NCBI GenBank assembly: GCA_043803405.1
Contig: JAZDKB010000018.1
Location: 160,001 to 224,000, forward strand
Direction: 5' to 3'
DNA from: Spirochaetota bacterium
GTDB lineage: Bacteria; Spirochaetota; UBA4802; JAFGDQ01
DNA length: 64,000 nucleotides
Numbering within the stretch: the stretch's first letter is position 1; each line of letters opens with the position of its first letter. The position numbers were made by a program, and so were the translations under genes. The notes under the pieces are model-generated. The model ran no database searches and was not told the origin of the DNA. It saw only the letters and a list, made by a program, of their open reading frames with translations. Of this stretch, positions 12,454 to 28,050 are shown piece by piece.

Positions 12454-12657
12454 AAATAGCGTCCTTACCTGTAATGAATATACTATGTCTGTGACTAAAA
12501 AAAATACCTGGGAGATTGTCAACAGATAAAATATTATTACATAATAACCCGATTGCACCGAAAGCTGGTGCGATAACACCGGAGGAATACTACAGGGTAT
12601 TTTATTTGACTTTTTAAAAATATTAGTATCACACTATAAACTATTTTTCTGATCTAC

Positions 12658-12685
12658 GGAACTTTTATTGATCTTTATTGTCTAA
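12658..12685 (+). promoter_or_regulatory. RpoE-type ECF promoter
   Basis: G-GAACTT-N16-TCTAA, 30 bp upstream of the VWA gene start. Confidence 0.6.
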
Positions 12686-12715
12686 AAAATATAATAAAAA
12701 ACCGGAGGCATTATA

Positions 12716-14587
12716 ATGAAAAAATTACTATTTCTGATAATCGCATTTGTTTTTATATTCGGATGCGCTGATTCAAAAATGGCAAAAGTATCGTCCGATG
12801 ATAAAAGCTTAAGAGATGAAGTGGCTGCAGACACATCTTCGGCCAAACAGGACATGGAAAGGGCAAAGGCTTCTTCCGAAGAAAAAGACGCATCCGGCTA
12901 CAAGGAAGCAAAGAAGGCATCTGAGCCGGCATCGCCCTCGAAAAAGAAGAAGAACGGGGACAGCAAGGCGGACATGGCAGCTCCGGCCGGAGCGCCTTCT
13001 CCTCGTGAATCGTCTGCCGGAGCAGGCGTTGGCGGCGGAAGGAGCACAGTGCCGTCATCATCAGGACTAAAGGCAGGCTTTGCGGACGACAATAAGCAAT
13101 TCAATTACTTTGTAAAATTTCTTGAACAGTACAAAGGCTCTGCGAAGCATTATCCTGCAAATATTGAGGAACGCATTATACTTAAAGTATTTGATTTCAA
13201 AAACAAAAGCATAGCCAATGCAAAGATCGATATTTTTGCTGACAAAAAACAATTATGTTCCGGAAGAACATACGCGGACGGCAGCTTTTTGTTTTTTCCT
13301 TCAGAGTACGGGAATAAGCCTGCGGCTTACAGGGCTGTAATTACATCGCAGCAGAAATCAAAAGAAATAAAAATAGACAGGCAGGGCAAACGTGAAATTG
13401 ACGTAAATTTTGACGGGCTTCGTCCTGAGATGAAAAATATTCCTATAGATATTTTATTCATTCTGGACACAACTGGCAGCATGGGCGAAGAGATAAGCAG
13501 GCTTAAAGACACAATAGAAATAATCAATATGAACATCGCGTCCATTTCAAGCAAGCCGAAGGTTCGTTTCGGCATGGTTCTGTACAGGGATAAAGACGAA
13601 GAATACCTGACAAAAATTATTCCGCTTACTGACGATCTTGACAGGTTCAGGGAGGAGCTTAACAAAGTTGAGGCCAACGGCGGTGGAGACGGGCCGGAAG
13701 ATCTCCAGTCCGCATTATCGGATGCGTTAACTAAAATAAAATGGAATAATAACGGCATACGCCTTAGCTTTATTATTACGGACGCTCCCCCTCACATTGA
13801 CTACGGGCAAAAATACACTTATATAAACGCAGCCCGTGACGCGAGACAAAAAGGAATAAAGATATTCTCCGTAGGCACAGGCGGCCTTGATATAAACGGC
13901 GAATACGTTTTAAGGCAATTGTCGCAATACACGTATTCAAAGTATATCTTCCTTACTTACGGCGAAAGAGGCGAGGCTGAAGGCGGGAAGGAAGGCAGCG
14001 TGAGCCATCACACAGGCGCGAATTTTCAGACCGACAAGCTCGAGAGCATAATCATCCGCTTTGCAAAGGAAGAGCTTTCTTTTCAGTCGGATAAGCCTCT
14101 GGAACAGGGAGAGGAATTTATTCAGGCTGTTAAAATAAAAGACGAGCAGAACGAAGCGACACTTAAAAAGCTTAATGACATGTGCATTGCACAGCTTATT
14201 GATTATTCGTCAATAGGCATTCCTTTGGGTACAACTGTAAGCGTAATTCCCTTTGCTTCGGACAACAAAGCGCTTAAATCAAATGCCGAGTATTTTACAG
14301 AACAGATGGCCTTTTCGCTTGCCAGGAACAAGACATTTAAAATAGTTGAACGCAAGGATATGCAGAAAATCCTTAAAGAGCTTGAACTTCAGTTTACAGG
14401 CCTTGTTAAGGATGAAAGCGCTGTTAAGGCAGGCAAACTCATCGGCGCAAAAATGATAATTACAGGAAATATTTACGAAAAGCCAGCCAATTATGAGATA
14501 TTTTTAAAGCTGCTGCGCGTTGAAACAGGGGAAGTGGTTTCCGTTAACAAGCTAAGAATAGACAGAATGCTTGGACTTTCAAAATAG
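12716..14587 (+). CDS. VWA-domain lipoprotein with C-terminal FlgO/CsgG-like domain
   Basis: Lipobox IFGC; low-complexity linker; MIDAS LDTTGSM, GGGDGPED, ITDAPPH; C-terminal IVERKDMQKILKEL..AGKLIGAK..LLRVETGEV. Confidence 0.8.
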   Translation: MKKLLFLIIAFVFIFGCADSKMAKVSSDDKSLRDEVAADTSSAKQDMERAKASSEEKDASGYKEAKKASEPASPSKKKKNGDSKADMAAPAGAPSPRESSAGAGVGGGRSTVPSSSGLKAGFADDNKQFNYFVKFLEQYKGSAKHYPANIEERIILKVFDFKNKSIANAKIDIFADKKQLCSGRTYADGSFLFFPSEYGNKPAAYRAVITSQQKSKEIKIDRQGKREIDVNFDGLRPEMKNIPIDILFILDTTGSMGEEISRLKDTIEIINMNIASISSKPKVRFGMVLYRDKDEEYLTKIIPLTDDLDRFREELNKVEANGGGDGPEDLQSALSDALTKIKWNNNGIRLSFIITDAPPHIDYGQKYTYINAARDARQKGIKIFSVGTGGLDINGEYVLRQLSQYTYSKYIFLTYGERGEAEGGKEGSVSHHTGANFQTDKLESIIIRFAKEELSFQSDKPLEQGEEFIQAVKIKDEQNEATLKKLNDMCIAQLIDYSSIGIPLGTTVSVIPFASDNKALKSNAEYFTEQMAFSLARNKTFKIVERKDMQKILKELELQFTGLVKDESAVKAGKLIGAKMIITGNIYEKPANYEIFLKLLRVETGEVVSVNKLRIDRMLGLSK

Positions 14588-18224: not shown

Positions 18225-18645
18225 CTTCTCCTCCTGATTTATTGATTGATAACCCTGCATATTATATATATGCTAAATCTTTTTTACAAACAAAATTTAA
18301 ACAAGATTATTGAGTAATGCTGGGCAAAGTACAGCAATCCAATATACAGTTATCAATATTCAGAAGCTCCGATAGAAGGAGGTAACGCAAAATTTCCGGA
18401 GTGATCAATTGTTATCCCTGTTTCCGAACATCTGCGAGATAACACATGGTGTACCTGGCATCCCTGCCGGAATTCGCGCTTTCTCAACAGAAAAAGGCAA
18501 TTTAAAACCGCCGGAACACACTGCATTTATAATTGTCTAACCGGAAAATATCCTTATTAAAATATCCTGCATATTTTTAATCCGCATGTCAGTATAACAA
18601 TCCCTGTACAGCGCCTTCACACATTAAAAAATTTTTCCGCGGAAA

Positions 18646-18676
18646 GTGACATTAATATCCTTCATATTTGTTTAAT
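18646..18676 (+). promoter_or_regulatory. Candidate ECF promoter, copy 1
   Basis: GTGACA-N17-TGTTTAAT upstream of the OM barrel gene; the same motif occurs at 21503 and 24263. Confidence 0.65.
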
Positions 18677-18759: not shown

Positions 18760-19461
18760 ATGAAAAGCATGTCAAAATTTTTTGCCGTAATTTTAGCAGT
18801 ATTCCTCTTTGGCAATTCCGGAATCTTTGCCCAGGAAGCGGCAAAGGCCGCAACTGAAGCGGAAAAAATAACTAACACCGGCGAAACGCAGGATAAACCG
18901 AAGCGCGAGGTGAGTGCGCTTTTTAAAGGCATTGGGAAGGATACTTACATTTCCGGTTACGGTGCGCTTACGGGGTCATACTCAAGGATCAAAGGAGAAG
19001 ATGCGTTCCTGCCCGGCTTCCGTGCTGGACTCATACTGGATAACCTGGTAATTGGCCTGAGCGGCACATGCCTTGCGCATCCGAATAAAAGGAGCGACTT
19101 CGGGGATAATTCATATACGGACGGGAAAGACTACGTGGACTTCAGCTATGGAGGCGCAATGGTCGAATATTACTTCTTCCCGCAAAAACTGGTGCATTTT
19201 TCAATAGGCACTGTGATCGGCGGAGGAAGCCTCAGGTTTTCGTCAGACAGGGATGACGACGATGACAATGACAACAGGGGCGGGGATAAATTTTTCGCAG
19301 TGGAGCCAGAAGCGAATGTTTTCATAAATCTTGCAAGGTTCTGCCGCGTCGGCATAGGCGGTTCGTACAGGTACATCAATGGCCTGGATAATGATACCTA
19401 TAAAGACAGGCATTTCAACGGCGCGAATGTTAAACTGGTAGCAGCTTTCGGATGGTTCTAG
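18760..19461 (+). CDS. Small outer-membrane beta-barrel protein
   Basis: Start MKSMSK at 18760 after AAGGAGG; signal peptide ending IFA; SGYGA, YGGAMVEY, VEPEANV, GGSYRY strands; C-terminal FGWF. Confidence 0.75.
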   Translation: MKSMSKFFAVILAVFLFGNSGIFAQEAAKAATEAEKITNTGETQDKPKREVSALFKGIGKDTYISGYGALTGSYSRIKGEDAFLPGFRAGLILDNLVIGLSGTCLAHPNKRSDFGDNSYTDGKDYVDFSYGGAMVEYYFFPQKLVHFSIGTVIGGGSLRFSSDRDDDDDNDNRGGDKFFAVEPEANVFINLARFCRVGIGGSYRYINGLDNDTYKDRHFNGANVKLVAAFGWF

Positions 19462-19643: not shown

Positions 19644-20285
19644 ATGTCTGATACATTATACCTTGTAGGTTATGCCGAAACCTTTGTTTTTATTATGCTT
19701 CTTGCGGCAAGCATAATAGCACTGGCAGTAGGCATAGAGAGGACTGTAATATTCAAAAGGAATACAAATAAAAAAATAGATCTGTTCGTCAGCCGGTTAA
19801 TTGAGCTGTTCCGCAGCCGCAACATTAAAGCCGCTGCCGCGCTGGTAAAGGAAACAGGAGAAAACGTATATACACGTTTTGCGGACTTTTCAATGCATCA
19901 GGCGGAAAAATACGGAAGCGATCTGCCCGAACTTATGTCCGGTAAAATAATAGAGGAAAAGATGTTTCTCGAAAAGCGGCTTACAATATTGAACACTCTT
20001 GGAAACAACGCGCCTTTCATAGGCCTGCTCGGCACAGTGCTCGGCGTTATTAAAGCATTCTACGGGCTTGGCACGCTCGGCAGCACAGGCGCGGAAGTGG
20101 TAATGCGCAGCATCTCAAAGGCTTTGCTTGCTACGGCAGCAGGCCTGTTCATAGCCATACCCGTAGTCATGGCAAACAATTACTTTTCAAAAAAAGTGAA
20201 GATCATTACCCAGCATCTTGAAATTTTTTCCAGAGAAATAAACGCGAGCCTTCGCGCAAAAAAAAAGAATGCAAAGAGTGAATAA
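19644..20285 (+). CDS. exbB: MotA/TolQ/ExbB proton channel
   Basis: APFIGLLGTVLGVIKAF; ALLATAAGLFIAIP. Confidence 0.9.
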   Translation: MSDTLYLVGYAETFVFIMLLAASIIALAVGIERTVIFKRNTNKKIDLFVSRLIELFRSRNIKAAAALVKETGENVYTRFADFSMHQAEKYGSDLPELMSGKIIEEKMFLEKRLTILNTLGNNAPFIGLLGTVLGVIKAFYGLGTLGSTGAEVVMRSISKALLATAAGLFIAIPVVMANNYFSKKVKIITQHLEIFSREINASLRAKKKNAKSE

Positions 20286-20304
20286 ACAAAAGAGGTAAAT
20301 TGCA

Positions 20305-20706
20305 ATGTCAATATTTTCAAATTCGGAAAGCGACGAGATAGGGTACATCAACATTACTCCAATGGTAGATGTTCTGCTTGTGCTCCTTGTCATATTCATG
20401 GTAACAGCGAATTTTTTAAAGATGGAATCCGTAAACATAAACCTGCCAAAGGTTAACTCGGCTGATCCCAATATCGCGAAATCAGTTCAGATTGCGCTTA
20501 CGAACAACGGCAGGCTTTTAATGGAGGACAGCGAAATCACTGAAGAAAGAATGCTAGCAAGGCTTTCGCAGGAAGCCAGGTACAGGCCGAATGTGAGGGT
20601 AACGCTTTCCGCTGATGAGCGCCTTGCATACGGGAAAATAGCGCACGCGATGGGCATTATCCGCCAGTCGGGCGTTACGCGAATTGCTTTGTCCGTAAAG
20701 CGCTGA
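20305..20706 (+). CDS. exbD: ExbD/TolR
   Basis: INITPMVDVLLVLLVIFMVTA; LSADERLAYG. Confidence 0.9.
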   Translation: MSIFSNSESDEIGYINITPMVDVLLVLLVIFMVTANFLKMESVNINLPKVNSADPNIAKSVQIALTNNGRLLMEDSEITEERMLARLSQEARYRPNVRVTLSADERLAYGKIAHAMGIIRQSGVTRIALSVKR

Positions 20707-20719
20707 TGCATATAAAATT

Positions 20720-21379
20720 ATGATAAAAATATATCATCAAATAATTCAAAAGTTCAGAATGATGGATCTTTTCAGGCGATGCGTCAGCATTTCATTCAGC
20801 CTTCATCTGTTATTTATCGGTACATATTATCTTTCCAGTATGCCTGCTTTCAGCTCGGATGCCGGTGAAGTCTTTGACAGCCGGAACATAAGCTTTAAGA
20901 ATACGGAAGTTGATTTTGTCGATCTTCCGCCTTCCGTTATTTTGGGCGGTGACACAAACCCGGCTCCGGTACAGAAGGAAGAATGGGTGGAGGGCACAGG
21001 CAGGGGCAGGCCCGATGCGGGCAATACAGACGTAAATATAAACAAGCTCTCAGGCACAGGCACTGACCCGGACGGGTACATGTTCGCGGATCTCGCGGAC
21101 CATCCTCCAGTGCCGATAATCGATTTTAATCCGGACGATTTTTTTCCGCAGGCAGCAAGATCTGCGAACATTCACAGGAGCACAGTGCTTGTTGAAGTCC
21201 AGGTAAACGAGAACGGCTCTGTTAAAAATTTCAGGCTATTGTCCGCAGCTTCAGTATACGGTTTTGACGAGGCAGCAGTCAAAGTGCTTTCAAGGATGCG
21301 CTTTCGGCCCGGAAAGGTAAACGGCAGGCCTGTAAAAATGCTTGCGCGCATGCCCCTGGTATTTGCCCTGGAAGACTGA
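20720..21379 (+). CDS. tonB: TonB energy transducer
   Basis: N-terminal SFSLH anchor; C-terminal FPQAAR..GFDEAAV..FRPGKVNGRPV. Confidence 0.85.
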   Translation: MIKIYHQIIQKFRMMDLFRRCVSISFSLHLLFIGTYYLSSMPAFSSDAGEVFDSRNISFKNTEVDFVDLPPSVILGGDTNPAPVQKEEWVEGTGRGRPDAGNTDVNINKLSGTGTDPDGYMFADLADHPPVPIIDFNPDDFFPQAARSANIHRSTVLVEVQVNENGSVKNFRLLSAASVYGFDEAAVKVLSRMRFRPGKVNGRPVKMLARMPLVFALED

Positions 21380-21473: not shown

Positions 21474-21502
21474 AAATCTCATTAAGAGTCCATCCCGGAA
21501 TA

Positions 21503-21533
21503 GTAACACTTTCGCTGCCCTCCCGTGTTGAAT
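21503..21533 (+). promoter_or_regulatory. Candidate ECF promoter, copy 2
   Basis: GTAACA-N17-TGTTGAAT, 50 bp upstream of the TonB-dependent receptor. Confidence 0.65.
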
Positions 21534-21583: not shown

Positions 21584-23983
21584 ATGTCATTATATCAAAA
21601 CAAATCTTTTTATTTATTTGTCATAATTATTTTTTTTATTATGAAAGTCTCTGTCATTCATGCGCAGGCAGCAAAAGATGAATCTCCTGCTGCGGCAGAA
21701 CAGCCCGTGAAAGAAGCAGGCATTGCTGAAAACAGTGAAGCGCAAAAGCCGGGCGACCCCTCCTCACAGAACGCGGCTGAAAATGAAAAGGCAAAAACAG
21801 ACAGCAAAGAGACTGTGCTAAAGCCGCTCGTGATTCGCGGTTCAAAGGCGCGCGACAAGAAGAAGCCGGACATACAGAGCATCTCGCGCCAGACAATGAC
21901 TACCGAGGACATGAAAGAGGTTCCTGCTTCATTCGGGGATTCGGTTAGCGCTCTAACTTCGCTTCCGGGAATAACGCGCGAGGGAGGGAGCATATTCGGC
22001 GACCTTGTGATCAGGGGCGCCGATCCCATGGGCAACAAATATTTTGTCGATGATATTCCGCTCTATGATCCTCTGCATTTCGGAGGGATTCATTCTGTAA
22101 TCAATACGAACTTAATAAAGGATATAGACGTATACTCGTCCGCGTTCCCGGCTGAATTCGGATCAGCTACATCTGCCGTTATCAATATTTCCACTATAGA
22201 CAGGGTAAATGATTATGGAGGATATTTCGACGTAAGCCTTCTTTCCGTTAACACGCTTTTAAAAGCTCCCATACTGAAGGACAATAGCAATAACCTTGTT
22301 TTTAACAGGCCTTTAACCGGAGCGGATAATGATATACAGAATGCAGGATTTGTAATTGCGTCCGGAAGGTACGGCTATCTTGGCCTCGCCATAAAAGCCT
22401 CGGATATGATGACAGGCAATGACACACCTGTATCCCCCGAATACTGGGATTACCAGTTTAAGATGAAATATAATTTCAACACTGTACATTCGGCTACAAT
22501 TTTTCTTTTCGGGTTCAAGGATTTTATACGCATACTGATGAACGATGATCTCATGGAATCAGGGGATGATCCGTATATGATGAATGCGAAAATGAGATAC
22601 GAGAGGATATCGCATAATCAGGGACTGTATTTTGATTCGAAATTCAGCAATGACTTAAGCAACAGGATCCTTTTATACAGCTCTTTTACTGATATTAATG
22701 AATACTATGATTTTCCTGCAACAGGCGCTGCCTCATGGGCAAAGGATCTGGGACTGCATACAAAGCCCTGGATATTCGGACTAAAGGATAAGTATAAAGC
22801 AAAATGGCTGGACAGACATGCGGAACTTAGCGGAAGCGCCGAATACACGTTTTATCATTTTACTGCAAAAGGCAATTCCATTATTAACAAAGGAATGTCT
22901 CCTGTACTTGATTTCGGCGATGAAGACGCATTTCAAAGATACAACCTTGATGAAAAAATCATCAACCATGTTTACGGCGGTTACATTGAGAATAAATTTA
23001 TTTTTTCCGGCCTTACTGTCACTCCGGGCATACGGTCAGATCATCTTGTAAGAACAGGCGAGACAACATTTGACCCGAGACTTATGGCGAGCTGCAAATT
23101 TCCAACCAATACAACTATTGGTGCAGCAGGCGGGCATTACAGTTATTTCCCGCAGGTAAACCCGTACATCTTTGGTGAAAACACGGATGTCGCAGGCATG
23201 GGTAAAAAATTAAAATCCGAAAAAGCGTGGCATTCAAGTGTCAGCATTGAACAGGAAATCGGGCTTTTTTCATTTAAAGTTGAAGGATTCAGGAATTATT
23301 ATTATGATGAGCCAATGGCGTATCCTCATTATGAAGCAGACGGCACATATTTCCAGGGATTATGCTCAGGTAAAGAAAAAACCCGCGGATTTGAACTAAT
23401 GCTTCGCAAGGACTCTGAAGAGAGCAATAACGGGCTGTTCGGATGGATGAGCTATACATATACTCGCGCAAAATTTAAAAGCGGCCTGCCTACTACTGCT
23501 AATTTTCACGGAGTCGATCAGGGCTATATTGGAGACGAATACGGCGACAAATGGATCACATCGGAGTACGAGCAGGAGCATAATTTCAAGCTTGTCGCAG
23601 GTTACAGGCTTAACCGGCATATTTTAAGCGGACGTTTTCAGTACTGTTCGGGATATCCGTATACGCCTATTACAGGGCATGACTATGATGAAGATTATAA
23701 TACTGCTACTGGGAAAGACCGGTATATACCTGTATCCGGCGACAGGAATGCAAAAAATTTTCCATCTTATTATTCGCTTGATCTCAGATACACGCATAAG
23801 ACAAATTATTCATGGGGCAATGTAAGCTGGTACGTAGAAGTGATCAATTGTTTAATGAAAAAGCAGGTAAACACACAAAAGTGGTACTGGGACAGACCGT
23901 ATAGTGAAGGCAACAATCCGAAAAACAAATCGGAAGATACTCTTAATTTTATGCCGAATTTAGGAGTTGAAATTAAATTTTAA
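21584..23983 (+). CDS. TonB-dependent receptor
   Basis: Signal peptide; plug region (LTSLPGI, LVIRGAD, IDVYSSAFPAEFG); C-terminal SLDLRY..PNLGVEIKF. Confidence 0.9.
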   Translation: MSLYQNKSFYLFVIIIFFIMKVSVIHAQAAKDESPAAAEQPVKEAGIAENSEAQKPGDPSSQNAAENEKAKTDSKETVLKPLVIRGSKARDKKKPDIQSISRQTMTTEDMKEVPASFGDSVSALTSLPGITREGGSIFGDLVIRGADPMGNKYFVDDIPLYDPLHFGGIHSVINTNLIKDIDVYSSAFPAEFGSATSAVINISTIDRVNDYGGYFDVSLLSVNTLLKAPILKDNSNNLVFNRPLTGADNDIQNAGFVIASGRYGYLGLAIKASDMMTGNDTPVSPEYWDYQFKMKYNFNTVHSATIFLFGFKDFIRILMNDDLMESGDDPYMMNAKMRYERISHNQGLYFDSKFSNDLSNRILLYSSFTDINEYYDFPATGAASWAKDLGLHTKPWIFGLKDKYKAKWLDRHAELSGSAEYTFYHFTAKGNSIINKGMSPVLDFGDEDAFQRYNLDEKIINHVYGGYIENKFIFSGLTVTPGIRSDHLVRTGETTFDPRLMASCKFPTNTTIGAAGGHYSYFPQVNPYIFGENTDVAGMGKKLKSEKAWHSSVSIEQEIGLFSFKVEGFRNYYYDEPMAYPHYEADGTYFQGLCSGKEKTRGFELMLRKDSEESNNGLFGWMSYTYTRAKFKSGLPTTANFHGVDQGYIGDEYGDKWITSEYEQEHNFKLVAGYRLNRHILSGRFQYCSGYPYTPITGHDYDEDYNTATGKDRYIPVSGDRNAKNFPSYYSLDLRYTHKTNYSWGNVSWYVEVINCLMKKQVNTQKWYWDRPYSEGNNPKNKSEDTLNFMPNLGVEIKF

Positions 23984-24200: not shown

Positions 24201-24262
24201 CTGGCATTTATGACGGCGTATAGGAGTATCTAAGTTTATAAGCGGAATTATTTTTTAGCAGG

Positions 24263-24293
24263 GTAACAAATAATACGGTTTCAGATGTTTAAT
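24263..24293 (+). promoter_or_regulatory. Candidate ECF promoter, copy 3 (autoregulatory position)
   Basis: GTAACA-N17-TGTTTAAT, 26 bp upstream of the ECF sigma ATG. Confidence 0.7.
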
Positions 24294-24319: not shown

Positions 24320-24808
24320 ATGCAGATCGATGTTGCTGAATATTACAGGAAATACGGGCCAATGGTGCTCAGAAGGTGCAGATTGCTTCTTAAGGATGAA
24401 GACAGGGCAATGGACGCCGTGCAGGATGTATTTGTGAAGCTTCTGCAGAACCAGGACAGGCTGAGCGGCACATATCCTTCGAGCCTGCTTTTCAGAATGG
24501 CAACCAACGTGTGTCTGAATATTATACGTTACGATAAAAGCAGGCCGCAGGCAGACTGCGGCGACATTCTGGCTTACATTGCTGCCAATGATGACATGGA
24601 GAGCAGGATCGCGGTAAGGGATTATATCGAAAGAATATTCGCAAAAGAAAAAGCAACCACAGGCGAACTTGCTGTAATGCACTATGTGGATAAAATGACG
24701 CTTAATGAAGTAGCAGAAATTTCCGGGATGTCTGTTTCCGGGGTCAGGAAGCGTCTGAGAAAATTAACTGAAACAGCGAAATCTCTGGATATGGAGGAAG
24801 AGATATGA
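24320..24808 (+). CDS. ECF sigma factor
   Basis: Region 2 (YGPMVLRRCRLLL..AMDAVQDVFVKL..LFRMATNVCLN) and region 4 HTH (MTLNEVAEISGMSVSGVRKRL); 162 aa. Confidence 0.9.
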   Translation: MQIDVAEYYRKYGPMVLRRCRLLLKDEDRAMDAVQDVFVKLLQNQDRLSGTYPSSLLFRMATNVCLNIIRYDKSRPQADCGDILAYIAANDDMESRIAVRDYIERIFAKEKATTGELAVMHYVDKMTLNEVAEISGMSVSGVRKRLRKLTETAKSLDMEEEI

Positions 24809-25614
24809 ACAATAACCGAATACCCGATATTATGCTTGAAAGATATGTTCTGAAAGAGCTTGACCCGAAAAAGACAAACGAGATCCGCGTGCTTAGTGAA
24901 ACTGATCCGGATATAGCCTCAAGGATAATGGAGATCAGGAAGTCAAACGAAGAAATACTGAGAACGTATCCTGATGACAAGATCACGGCAGAGATAACGC
25001 ATAAATATAATACACAGAATATATCCTGGAAAAAACAGCGCCGCATTCCGGTAAAATATCTGCGCATTATCCCGCCTGTTGCTGTCGCAGCTGCAGCTCT
25101 TGTTGTTTTTATACTGCTTCCGGCTGTTAAAAAAGATGTGGCAATTATAGATACGAATGACATTACAAGGATCAAGGGAAAGGAAACTGCGCTTTACTTG
25201 TACAAAAAAAACAGAAACGGCGAAATTGATCTTATGAAAAACAATTCGGGCGCAAAAACAGGCGATCTGATTCAAATAGGTTACTCAACAATGGAAAATT
25301 CTTATGGCGTGATTTTATCGATAGACGGCAGGGGGAAGGTGACCCTTCATTATCCTGCTAATGAGAAGCAATCATCAAAGCTGCCTGCAGGAAAAAAACA
25401 CTTGCTCGAAAATTCATACGAGCTCGACGACGCGCCGGATTTTGAACGTTTCTTTTTTATAACATCATCTAACGAGATAAATATAGCATCTGTTGTATTT
25501 TCCGCAGAGATGCTTGCAGTTGAAAGGAAAAAGGCAATGACTGAAAATTTAACCTTTCAGTCTCTCAAAAATGAATCGATTAACCAGGTCTCTGTACTTG
25601 TTAAAAAGGATTAG
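24805..25614 (+). CDS. Putative single-pass anti-sigma factor with DUF4384-like periplasmic domain
   Basis: ATGA overlap with the sigma gene; N-terminal IPDIMLERYVLKEL; TM helix (PVAVAAAALVVFILLP); TRIKG; GDLIQIGY..GVILSIDGRGKVTLHYP..SYELDDAPDFERFFFITS. Confidence 0.75.
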   Translation: MNNNRIPDIMLERYVLKELDPKKTNEIRVLSETDPDIASRIMEIRKSNEEILRTYPDDKITAEITHKYNTQNISWKKQRRIPVKYLRIIPPVAVAAAALVVFILLPAVKKDVAIIDTNDITRIKGKETALYLYKKNRNGEIDLMKNNSGAKTGDLIQIGYSTMENSYGVILSIDGRGKVTLHYPANEKQSSKLPAGKKHLLENSYELDDAPDFERFFFITSSNEINIASVVFSAEMLAVERKKAMTENLTFQSLKNESINQVSVLVKKD

Positions 25615-25619
25615 CTTAA

Positions 25620-27911
25620 ATGAAAAAAATATTTAATGTCATTTGTATAATATTTTTCTGTTTTTTTTATATTATAAATATTTCCGGCCTTGAAAAAAAT
25701 ACCATCCGCAGATTTGCTTTAATAGTGGGGGCAAATGACGGAGGCCCTGCCAGGCCAAAGCTTAAGTATTCGGTTTCGGACGCAAAATCAGTTCTGACAG
25801 TGCTTAACGAAATGGGCGGCATTACACGGAACGACAGCGTACTTCTGATTGAGCCTGACAGAAAAATTTTTTTTTCAGGAATGGATTCTGTTATAAAAAA
25901 AATAAAGCAATCAGGAAAAACATCGGATAAAAAAGAACTAATATTTTATTATTCAGGACACTCAGACGAAGAATCCATACTCCTCGGCAAAGAAAAAATA
26001 TCCTACAAGGAGATAAAGGATTTCATAAACAGCACACCTTCCGATGTGCGCATTGCAATACTCGACTCATGTTCATCTGGAGCTTTCACGAGGCTTAAGG
26101 GAGGTAAAATGCGCTCTCCGTTTCTCGTGGATTCCGCATTTAACATGAAGGGATACGCGTTTATGACTTCAAGCTCGCCCGACGAAGCATCGCAGGAATC
26201 TGAAAGAATAAAGGGCTCGTTCTTTACGCACTATCTAGTCGCGGGTTTAAGAGGCGCTGCGGACATGACCCAGGACGGCCGCATCACTCTTAACGAAGCA
26301 TACCAGTTTGCCTATAACGAGACCCTTGCGGGCACGGAGAAGACAATGAGCGGGCCACAGCACCCGAACTACAATATACAGATGTCGGGAACCGGCGATG
26401 TCGTAATGACGGATATACGTAAAAGCTCTTCTTTAATGATTATAAGCACGGAGATATCCGGCAAGCTGTTCATCAGGGACAGTGGGAACAGCCTTGTTTG
26501 CGAATTAAGAAAATCCGCAGGGCGCGCCATGCAGCTTGGGCTGGAGGGAGGAGCATACAGTATCACATACATAAAAGAAGGCAGCCTGTACGAAGCGGAT
26601 ATAACACTTAATACAGGCAAAGAAGTAGTTCTTTCGAATAATGACTTTAAAAAATCAGCTAAAGACAAAACAGTAGCCCGCGGAGATGCAGATAACAGCG
26701 AAAACAAATACGAAACAGTGGAATGGCAATTTTCTCTTTATCCGATGTTTCAGAGGAACAGAAACGTAATTAATAATTTTACGTTTAATCTTTTTGGAAG
26801 CTACAGCGCCCGGTTAAACGGACTCAGCTTTGGACTGGGTCCCGGCATTGTAAAGGAAGATGTAAAGGGGATTCAGCTGAACATTTTTGGAAATTACGCT
26901 GGTGAGAGAGTTGAAGGCGCACAGCTTTCCGTTATTGGCAATTATTCCGGGGGAAATATTACAGGTCTTCAATTATCACATCTTTTTAATATTGCCAGAG
27001 GCAATACAACCGGAGCGCAAGTATCACAAATTTTTAATATTTCAAGAGGCGACTTGACCGGGGCTCAGGTTTCCACAATATTCAACTATAACAGTAAAGA
27101 CGTAAAAGGAACACAGACTTCCTGCATCTTTAATCATGCGCAGCAAAATATTACAGGTCTGCAGCTTAGCGCTGTATATAATTATTCCGGCGAAAACGTT
27201 AAAGGCACGCAGATATCAGCAGTATATAACCACGCAGGAAAAAAAATGACAGGCCTGCAGCTTACCGGTGTCTGCAATTATTCCGGCGATGATGTAAATG
27301 GAACACAGATTGCCGGTGTTGCAAATATTTCGGGTAACGCAAACGGAGTGCAGATTGCTACATTCAATCTTGCAAAGGATTTCAGCGGTGTTCAGCTGGG
27401 CGTCATAAATATCGCGAAAACGCAGAACGGATTGCCTATTGGCCTCATTAATTTTTCCGAAAACGGCGCCATAGAAATCGCAGCATGGGGAAGCACGTTT
27501 ATGGCAGGCAACGCTGGTTTATTGTTCCGTTCGCATTATATTTATACTATATTTTCAGCAAGCTGGAATAATCTTGATGAAAAGATTGATACATCCTTTG
27601 CATATGGATTTCATCTTGGTGTCCATATACCGGTAAGCTCTTTTTACACGGACATTGACGCAGGTTTTATCCATATAGATAATGACAAGATCTTCTCGGT
27701 TAAAGAAAACACTGATCAGCAGGCATTGCAGGGAAGAATATCGATCGGGTATTATATTACAAAACGCATCTCGGTTTTTGCAGGCGCGGGTCTTAGTTAT
27801 ATATATGACAGCGAATTCAATAATGATGACGGAGATACGAGATTTAAGGAAGGAAAATATTCACCGTTGTTCTTTGCCGGAATAAAAGCTGCGTTGTTCG
27901 GCAATGGATAG
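25620..27911 (+). CDS. Exported caspase-like (peptidase C14) protein with beta-solenoid repeats and a C-terminal beta-barrel-like region
   Basis: Hydrophobic N-terminus; RFALIVGANDG, LKYSVSDA, YYSGH (catalytic His), ILDSCSSG (catalytic Cys), GSFFTHYL; 16-aa GxQ..N repeats; amphipathic C-terminal strands. Confidence 0.85.
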   Translation: MKKIFNVICIIFFCFFYIINISGLEKNTIRRFALIVGANDGGPARPKLKYSVSDAKSVLTVLNEMGGITRNDSVLLIEPDRKIFFSGMDSVIKKIKQSGKTSDKKELIFYYSGHSDEESILLGKEKISYKEIKDFINSTPSDVRIAILDSCSSGAFTRLKGGKMRSPFLVDSAFNMKGYAFMTSSSPDEASQESERIKGSFFTHYLVAGLRGAADMTQDGRITLNEAYQFAYNETLAGTEKTMSGPQHPNYNIQMSGTGDVVMTDIRKSSSLMIISTEISGKLFIRDSGNSLVCELRKSAGRAMQLGLEGGAYSITYIKEGSLYEADITLNTGKEVVLSNNDFKKSAKDKTVARGDADNSENKYETVEWQFSLYPMFQRNRNVINNFTFNLFGSYSARLNGLSFGLGPGIVKEDVKGIQLNIFGNYAGERVEGAQLSVIGNYSGGNITGLQLSHLFNIARGNTTGAQVSQIFNISRGDLTGAQVSTIFNYNSKDVKGTQTSCIFNHAQQNITGLQLSAVYNYSGENVKGTQISAVYNHAGKKMTGLQLTGVCNYSGDDVNGTQIAGVANISGNANGVQIATFNLAKDFSGVQLGVINIAKTQNGLPIGLINFSENGAIEIAAWGSTFMAGNAGLLFRSHYIYTIFSASWNNLDEKIDTSFAYGFHLGVHIPVSSFYTDIDAGFIHIDNDKIFSVKENTDQQALQGRISIGYYITKRISVFAGAGLSYIYDSEFNNDDGDTRFKEGKYSPLFFAGIKAALFGNG
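26868..27467 (+). repeat. Intragenic 16-aa (48-nt) GxQ-x5-N repeats
   Basis: GIQLNIFGNYAGERVE / GAQLSVIGNYSGGNIT / GLQLSHLFNIARGNTT ...: nine full units, then four shorter ones. Confidence 0.85.
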
Positions 27912-27977
27912 ATAATAGAACATTAAATATGAGAGGCACTCGCCAGGATGAGAAATCCCGATAAAAACAATTTTATG

Positions 27978-28050
27978 CAGGCCACGAGGGATTTGAACCC
28001 CCAGCCCTCGGTTTTGGAGACCGATGCTCTACCAGTTGAGCTAGTGGCCT
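27978..28050 (-). tRNA. tRNA-Trp (CCA)
   Basis: AGGCCAC/GTGGCCT acceptor stem, TAGCTCAACTGGTAGAGC D-arm, TCGGT-CTCCAAA-ACCGA anticodon arm, GGTTCAAATCC T-arm; 3' CCA not encoded. Confidence 0.95.

Follow-up and report, generated by a model that had tools for sequence, protein, structure and literature searches.

Known systems and the locus

In the FecA/FecR/FecI system, an outer-membrane sensor and an inner-membrane anti-sigma factor act together with an extracytoplasmic function (ECF) sigma factor that induces TonB-dependent uptake. Here we describe a cassette with a similar sensor/anti-sigma/ECF logic and predicted TonB uptake targets, found in a 64,000-nucleotide stretch of a Spirochaetota genome (assembly GCA_043803405.1, contig JAZDKB010000018.1, positions 160,001 to 224,000; hereafter the window, the coordinates of which are used throughout). 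The cassette comprises three forward-strand genes, encoding an ECF sigma factor (24320..24808, 162 aa), a predicted anti-sigma factor (24805..25614, 269 aa), and a C14 caspase with predicted export (25620..27911, 763 aa). Unlike in the case of FecA, the partner in the outer membrane is a small predicted barrel fused to a protease, and neither FecR nor STN domains had a Pfam match at E≤0.1 in the window proteins. We consider it reasonably probable that the cassette is a proteolytic trans-envelope switch, in which the caspase, by prediction tethered to the inner face of the outer membrane, would cut the anti-sigma factor after the lysine of a T-R-I-K-G motif and free the sigma factor for its own operon and for uptake genes. 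The triad itself is real and widespread, and sequence comparison lends good support to the putative proteolytic mechanism.

Operons of sigma-70 and metacaspase genes were noted in 2012 in Myxococcus xanthus DK1622, Anaeromyxobacter, Haliangium, Sorangium, Ralstonia, and Fibrobacter (PMC3501461). They resemble the cassette in gene content and in N-terminal helices that were considered likely signal peptides; the accessible part of that report mentions neither an anti-sigma factor nor a barrel anchor and offers no cleavage motif, promoter, regulon, or mechanism. In DdvS/DdvA, according to the available sections of PMC11506125, an ECF sigma factor is held by a single-pass anti-sigma factor, and a periplasmic caspase-fold site-1 protease is again proposed: self-cleavage by the CHAT domain would remove the periplasmic domain of DdvA, to be followed by RseP. 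However, the TPR-CHAT part of DdvA belongs to its own chain, which also has a zinc domain, and the system controls a cyclic-oligonucleotide-based anti-phage signalling system (CBASS) and CRISPR. By contrast, the C14 protease of the window cassette is a separate protein with a predicted anchor in the outer membrane, the anti-sigma factor has an Ig-like domain instead of TPR-CHAT and lacks zinc ligands, there are no cas or CBASS genes among the nearest flanking genes, and the predicted targets are uptake genes. Finally, Csx29/Csx30/RpoE and SAVED-CHAT/PCaspase/PCi/PC-sigma cassettes have been described at type III CRISPR loci (two bioRxiv preprints, including 10.1101/2023.06.23.546230). The portions of these preprints at hand describe a caspase-fold protease, a cleavable sigma partner and a sigma factor, DUF4384 at the C-terminus of some Csx30, and activation of PCaspase by cleavage. 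Those cassettes are cytoplasmic and triggered by target RNA or cyclic triadenylate (cA3), whereas the window protease is predicted to be exported and the cassette has no cas or SAVED neighbours.

In the parts that were available, the ECF classification (PMC7826278 and the Casas-Pastor supplement) mentions DUF4384 only under ECF25 and has no mention of a caspase. A description of the proposed mechanism was not found in the literature searched, the scope of which excluded most subscription journals and bioRxiv supplements, and a prior mention may exist. Sigma-metacaspase operons were already known; what appears to be new, as judged from sequence, is the motif that the caspase shares with the anti-sigma factor and the putative tie to anti-sigma proteolysis and cell-surface signalling. 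The characterized bacterial caspases in the literature surveyed are tied to defence or death. If the proposal is true, a caspase joins the site-1 proteases, signals have a new route through the periplasm, and bacterial caspases acquire a signalling job. The family comes with a candidate substrate, three cut sites predicted at the residue level, a promoter consensus, and a regulon, and it is carried by the genetically tractable M. xanthus.

Conservation of the cassette

A first-pass annotation, made from the sequence of the window alone, had described the three genes as tightly coupled, and the coordinates of the open reading frames (ORFs) bear this out: the sigma and anti-sigma genes share an ATGA overlap, and a 5-bp gap separates the latter from the caspase gene. 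Each is present in one copy in the 3.98-Mb genome, and the closest named relatives are Spirochaetota assemblies.

We scanned GTDB genomes with the middle protein and analysed the best 80 of 500 relatives. The caspase gene is directly downstream of the anti-sigma gene in all 80 loci (one caspase being in pieces), and a sigma homologue is found upstream in 78, once behind an intervening gene and once as a short ORF; the two loci without it are from Myxococcus. The record titles of these loci name Spirochaetota, Aminicenantes, Myxococcota, Fibrobacterota, and Acidobacteriota. When the caspase was used as the anchor, 32 of 251 sampled genomes of the phylum matched, and the 29 non-self loci have an anti-sigma-like gene upstream in 29/29 cases and a sigma gene in 28/29, the miss being at a contig end. 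The two sets of loci overlap in part. In both, linkage is conserved, which agrees with the first-pass treatment of the triad as a module. The family is large: with clustering at 50% identity, a profile search yielded 2,807 clusters at E≤1e-30. The caspase of locus L065, in pieces and under the threshold, was left out, as was L023, with its start called late, from the signal peptide count; L007, L023, L057, L063, and L065 were left out of sets A3 and A4.

The apparent 1,312-aa fusion in L123 results from an open frame that lies upstream of a normal signal peptide. Records titled Eubacteriales or Clostridia (L006, L011, L022, L027, and others) nest among Aminicenantes rows in the tree and carry outer-membrane genes; these titles are probably mislabelled, and we did not use them as evidence for monoderm hosts.

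The three proteins

The sigma factor matches TIGR02937 (55.1 bits against a cut-off of 42.9), as well as Sigma70_r2 and Sigma70_r4. With the sigma2 and sigma4 regions only, it falls within the ~160-200 aa typical of ECF (group IV) factors.

The middle protein has one hydrophobic segment at about residues 85-106, and hydropathy indicates a transmembrane (TM) segment in 83/83 aligned rows. Its model, with a predicted local distance difference test score (pLDDT) of 81, consists of a helical N-terminal anti-sigma domain (residues 4-67), a TM helix (about 88-106), a disordered, flexible linker, and an Ig-like DUF4384-related domain (126-269) with many invariant residues. Residues 4-67 align to RslA (3hug_B) with a middling Z score of 6.5 (root-mean-square deviation, rmsd, 3.2 over 62 residues). 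The zinc ligands HxxxCxxC were not found, as no Cys or His is conserved in residues 1-70 of 82 aligned rows. DUF4384 (PF14326) scores 22.9 bits, under its 27-bit gathering cut-off, while 48 of 64 homologues match it at E≤0.05. The anti-sigma profile search gave no match under E 0.1, and Foldseek with the model gave none under E 0.001. The N-terminal helical domain, the single TM segment, and the gene position at +1 correspond to the layout of class I anti-sigma factors, sigma binding and inhibition being predicted. Accordingly modelled, the middle protein is a predicted single-pass anti-sigma factor with a zinc-free helical domain.

The caspase starts with a Sec-type signal peptide without a lipobox (25620..25688, +; hydropathy heuristic). 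Similar hydrophobic N-termini are present in 79/79 scored caspase homologues, a lipobox pattern occurring in one, and in 120/122 further representatives. In the full model (pLDDT 91), the caspase domain (residues 29-265; 25704..26414, +) is followed by a beta-sandwich (270-346), a beta-helix (365-612), and a barrel (617-761). The caspase domain matches Peptidase_C14 (PF00656) with 42.9 bits against a cut-off of 21.4 (E 6e-11), and its fold aligns with metacaspase-4 AtMC4 (6w8r_A; Z 21.8, rmsd 2.6, 207 aligned residues); a single-sequence PDB search gave no match. The catalytic dyad in the YSGH and DSC motifs, H114 (25959-25961) and C151 (26070-26072), is intact, and together with the acidic residues D54 and D149 it is invariant in 80/80 rows (79 relatives and the window protein). 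The caspase fold with its His-Cys dyad places the protein among C14 meta/orthocaspases. D54 and D149 align with aspartates of metacaspase-4 that have a role in the S1 pocket; specificity for Arg/Lys is putative.

The beta-helix (26712..27455, +) is of the LA_2272 type (repeat match at E 1e-14; 3p4g_A Z 21.0, rmsd 3.3, 231 aligned). G-x-Q repeats occur nine times at an exact spacing of 16 aa, the autocorrelation being 0.44 at lag 16 and at most 0.11 at other lags from 8 to 24. The C-terminal domain (27468..27902, +) is modelled as an 8-stranded OmpA/OprF-like barrel, closest to OprF (4rlc_A Z 15.1, rmsd 3.5, 127 aligned) and similar to NspA, OmpA, and OmpW (Z 13-14). Having eight strands (residues 617-761) rather than a 12-stranded translocator, it is not that of a type Va autotransporter. 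The longest loops in the model are between strands 5-6 and 7-8, and the turns 2-3, 4-5, and 6-7 are short. In the usual OmpA topology short turns face the periplasm. As they are on the N-terminal side of the barrel here, the N-terminal domains should face the periplasm as well, the prediction being that the caspase projects into it from the outer membrane. On the whole, profiles and models confirm the first-pass description of the sigma type, the middle gene, the caspase dyad, the 16-aa repeats, and the barrel-like C-terminus; export and outer-membrane anchoring of the caspase hold as predictions from the signal-peptide heuristic and the barrel model.

A motif shared by the caspase and the anti-sigma factor

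The two proteins share the motif T-R-x-K-G. In the anti-sigma linker, T-R-I-K-G (residues 121-125; 25165..25179, +) contains a candidate cut between K124 and G125. K124 is present in 82/82 rows, G125 in 81, and the Arg in 70, while flanking linker columns are mostly conserved in at most 35/82. Caspases carry an inter-subunit processing loop after the catalytic Cys, and in the loop after the Cys of the window protein there is T-R-L-K-G (157-161; 26088..26102, +), with a candidate activation cut between K160 and G161. Both residues are found in 80/80 rows, and K-G stands at Cys+9/+10 in 122/122 representatives. The third motif, T-V-A-R-G (26670..26684, +), lies where the conserved caspase unit gives way to the variable anchor, the candidate release cut being between R354 and G355; R/K-G is seen there in 77/80 rows and 121/122 representatives. 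R-x-K-G occurs in both proteins in 55/80 loci, the background being 0.0002 per residue, and a distant M. xanthus triad has RIKG, RLKG, and LKG at the corresponding places.

All three motifs are predicted to be flexible, as they lie inside segments with pLDDT<50, residues 104-125 of the anti-sigma factor and 160-173 and 351-360 of the caspase. The caspase model has no other long segments of low confidence, and the anti-sigma model has one more. Characterized meta- and orthocaspases have Arg/Lys specificity, and MaOC1 activates itself by a cut at Arg219 (PMC7475262, as far as available). TRIKG and TVARG, the candidate sites already singled out in the first-pass annotation, are conserved against variable flanks. 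Still, the annotation had missed the TRLKG copy, as well as the promoter motif and the upstream TonB/barrel regulon, and it took TVARGD as the candidate self-processing site; this Arg-Gly site is indeed conserved, but K160/G161 is the likelier place of first self-processing.

In loci L017, L027, L031, L040, L043, and L070, a hydrophobic residue replaces the P3 Arg both in the enzyme loop and in the anti-sigma site. Five of these, plus L065, have genes for a TonB receptor and an S10 carboxypeptidase-family protein after the cassette.

Promoter motif and predicted regulon

Upstream of the sigma genes we found the motif RGTRACA-N17-TGTT. Counted as GTRRC-N18-TGTT, it precedes 53/78 sigma genes, compared with a shuffle mean of 0.175 and with a single match among the other spacings between 12 and 24. 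In the window, it forms a predicted autoregulated ECF promoter (24262..24292, +) with a -35-like GTAAC at 24263-24267 and a -10-like TGTT at 24286-24289. A position weight matrix (PWM) built without the site of this genome had 11 matches over score 13 genome-wide, only three of which are intergenic with a gene just downstream. All three are in this locus, starting at 18645, 21502, and 24262. The first (18645..18675, +) precedes a gene for a caspase-less outer-membrane barrel protein (18760..19461, +) and exbB, exbD, and tonB (19644..21379, +; Pfam MotA_ExbB, ExbD, and TonB_C). The second (21502..21532, +), the best-scoring in the genome (PWM 29.6, rank 1 of 11), precedes a TonB-dependent receptor of 799 aa (21584..23983, +; Pfam Plug, E 4.5e-9). 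All these genes are predicted members of the regulon.

Over the 80 loci, there are 92 sites, compared with 2-9 at other spacings. Sigma genes follow 51 of them and caspase-less paralogues 21; others lie upstream of genes for TonB receptors, ExbB, barrels, and lipoprotein-like proteins. Matches in five related genomes (20 in total) include six before TonB receptors, two before sigmas, two before anchor paralogues, one before exbB, and one before an orthologue of the window barrel. In M. xanthus AM003, four of the five matches precede the sigma gene, the anti-sigma-like gene of the act locus, and two genes that were assigned by eye, one as exbB-like and one as encoding a beta-helix.

Among the 143 nearest flanking genes and the three cassette proteins, PADLOC detected no cas, cyclase, or SAVED match; seven of the 143 genes matched other models, three of them ATPase-type. 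Since the promoter targets are uptake genes and cas/CBASS neighbours are absent, the output looks like envelope uptake and not defence, and the CRISPR independence suggested at first pass is supported. A scan for sigma-70 promoters and terminators was at chance level (29 vs. 23.0 and 13 vs. 9.8, respectively).

L026 carries a second, orphan anti-sigma-like gene (12637-13419) after exbB/tonB genes, with promoter motifs before the caspase and exbB. DUF2807 (GIN-domain) genes adjoin the cassette in L008, L011, L022, L025, L053, L068, and L077, one of them with the promoter motif.

Anchors and caspase-less paralogues

Four main groups can be told apart in the region C-terminal to R354, with 43, 20, 6, and 6 of 77 proteins. 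As 32/77 C-terminal regions are outside the solenoid-barrel group, the solenoid, for which the first-pass annotation proposed a putative sensing role, is optional. A caspase-less gene of the same anchor type is present within 7 kb in 29 of the 76 other loci. The barrel protein of the window regulon is 26-39% identical to the caspase-fused barrels of L021, L024, L029, L061, and others, and its orthologue with the same promoter motif is found in genome G184. This co-regulated barrel is of another anchor type than the window caspase. L022, L025, L053, L076, and L077 have caspase-less paralogues that keep the beta-sandwich and the barrel, and these are candidate decoys.

The system in Myxococcus xanthus

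M. xanthus carries the system partly in the act locus. There, the genes for homologues of the middle protein and the caspase come after a GGDEF gene, a sigma-54 activator gene, and an epimerase/GNAT gene, with no adjacent sigma gene, and a 53%-identical sigma factor is encoded at another locus. The first three genes match the five-gene act operon; the fourth and fifth are presumably actD and actE. The act locus is known through developmental genetics, and the part of that literature at hand gives no biochemical role for the two homologues.

L083 of M. xanthus AM003 (96-2040, -) has sigma, anti-sigma, and barrel-only genes without a caspase, and L091 (1-1317, -) encodes a second close caspase elsewhere in M. 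xanthus; the system is thus split over several loci in Myxococcus. A distant triad of sigma, anti-sigma, and caspase-barrel genes (L092, 1021-3868, -) has the same K-G motifs and a sigma factor only 28% identical, which suggests parallel subfamilies of the cassette.

Proposed mechanism and alternatives

Gene order, the intact dyad, the three Lys/Arg-Gly motifs, and the promoter motif with its downstream genes are observed; the following sequence of events is a proposal built on them. An outside cue would act on the barrel or cluster it. The caspase would then process itself between K160 and G161, and a cut between R354 and G355 would release the caspase and beta-sandwich from the anchor, bringing the inner membrane within reach. 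The freed caspase would cut the anti-sigma factor between K124 and G125, at a distance of 18 residues from the membrane, so that the Ig-like domain is lost, and a site-2 (M50) protease, genes for which are present in the genome, would complete its degradation. The sigma factor would induce TonB-dependent receptors, ExbBD-TonB, and caspase-less barrels, the latter possibly serving as bulk receptors or feedback decoys. More tentatively, and with clearly less than even confidence in the whole, the small, interchangeable barrel may be a receptor with a tethered initiator caspase that activates itself at K160, releases itself at R354, travels the periplasm as a messenger, cuts at K124, and thereby induces uptake genes and decoys. 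It would form a new class of cell-surface signalling and a bacterial counterpart of signalling by receptor-initiator caspase pairs without death, already perturbed by genetics in the M. xanthus act locus.

Several observations weigh against the proteolytic switch. Export of the caspase was judged by hydropathy and not by a trained predictor. Other conserved basic-Gly pairs sit in folded regions (caspase 177 and 211, anti-sigma 176), and the co-variation of P3 between the enzyme and the substrate is confined to one clade and does not reach significance (sign test, p=1). The promoter motif was discovered on the same loci where it was first counted, and genome-wide raw counts are not enriched (7 vs. 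0-9 at other spacings; 20 vs. 14 control matches in the five related genomes; 5 vs. 3 in M. xanthus), so that only the identity of the downstream genes distinguishes it. A caspase-less copy of the window caspase's own anchor was not found in this genome. Moreover, the conserved K-G could be the bait of an inhibitor or a binding motif.

The last point leads to the alternative that survives best, even if we regard it as unlikely: the middle protein is a bait-type inhibitor of the caspase or an uncleaved docking partner, in which case binding would pass on the signal, or cleavage would adjust or end the response rather than start it. PCi, encoded between the sigma factor and PCaspase, is both cut by PCaspase and its inhibitor (10.1101/2023.06.23.546230, available part), and DUF4384 is reported, in sources seen in part, on pseudo-orthocaspases and in fusions to proteases. 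The invariant residues of the Ig-like domain imply that it binds something, and M. xanthus has both an anti-sigma and caspase pair without an adjacent sigma gene and a sigma and anti-sigma pair without an adjacent caspase. However, both these M. xanthus loci bear the same promoter motif, the N-terminal domain is similar to a domain that binds sigma factors and lies on the opposite side of the membrane to the motif, and the motif is juxtamembrane, like site-1 cuts.

Less probable still, the caspase may be the output of the system, a surface or periplasmic protease under sigma control that digests a polymer, the products of which are imported via the TonB receptor, while other proteases deal with the anti-sigma factor. 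The uptake-like regulon, the S10 carboxypeptidase genes after the TonB receptor in six loci, and the resemblance of the beta-helix to adhesin and autotransporter passengers would fit. But the short turns on the N-terminal side of the barrel imply a periplasm-facing caspase, the outputs differ among loci whereas the caspase gene invariably adjoins the anti-sigma gene (80/80), and the shared motif is left unexplained.

We give little credence to an outer-membrane assembly checkpoint, in which the caspase-barrel would cut the anti-sigma factor only if barrel insertion fails, thereby monitoring envelope biogenesis with no outside ligand. It has a precedent in DegS/RseA, and the existence of at least four interchangeable anchor types could mean that being a barrel matters more than a specific ligand site; on the other hand, the genes predicted as targets encode receptors and barrels rather than chaperones or parts of the barrel assembly machinery, and matching of a caspase-less paralogue to the anchor type in 29/76 loci speaks for specificity. 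Least probable of all is an anti-phage or cell-death module akin to the CRISPR- and CBASS-linked sigma-protease cassettes, since the PADLOC results and the TonB-system promoter targets stand against the co-occurrence of sigma factor, inhibitor, and caspase in type III loci, the DUF4384 of some Csx30, and the control of a defence island by DdvS (PMC11506125, available sections).

Other features of the window

A tRNA-Trp(CCA) gene (27977-28050, -) immediately follows the caspase gene. GC content does not shift across the locus, which therefore gives no indication of being a recent island. Unrelated to the cassette, a lipoprotein-like protein of 623 aa with VWA and C-terminal CsgG/LpoB-like domains is encoded at 12716-14587 (+).

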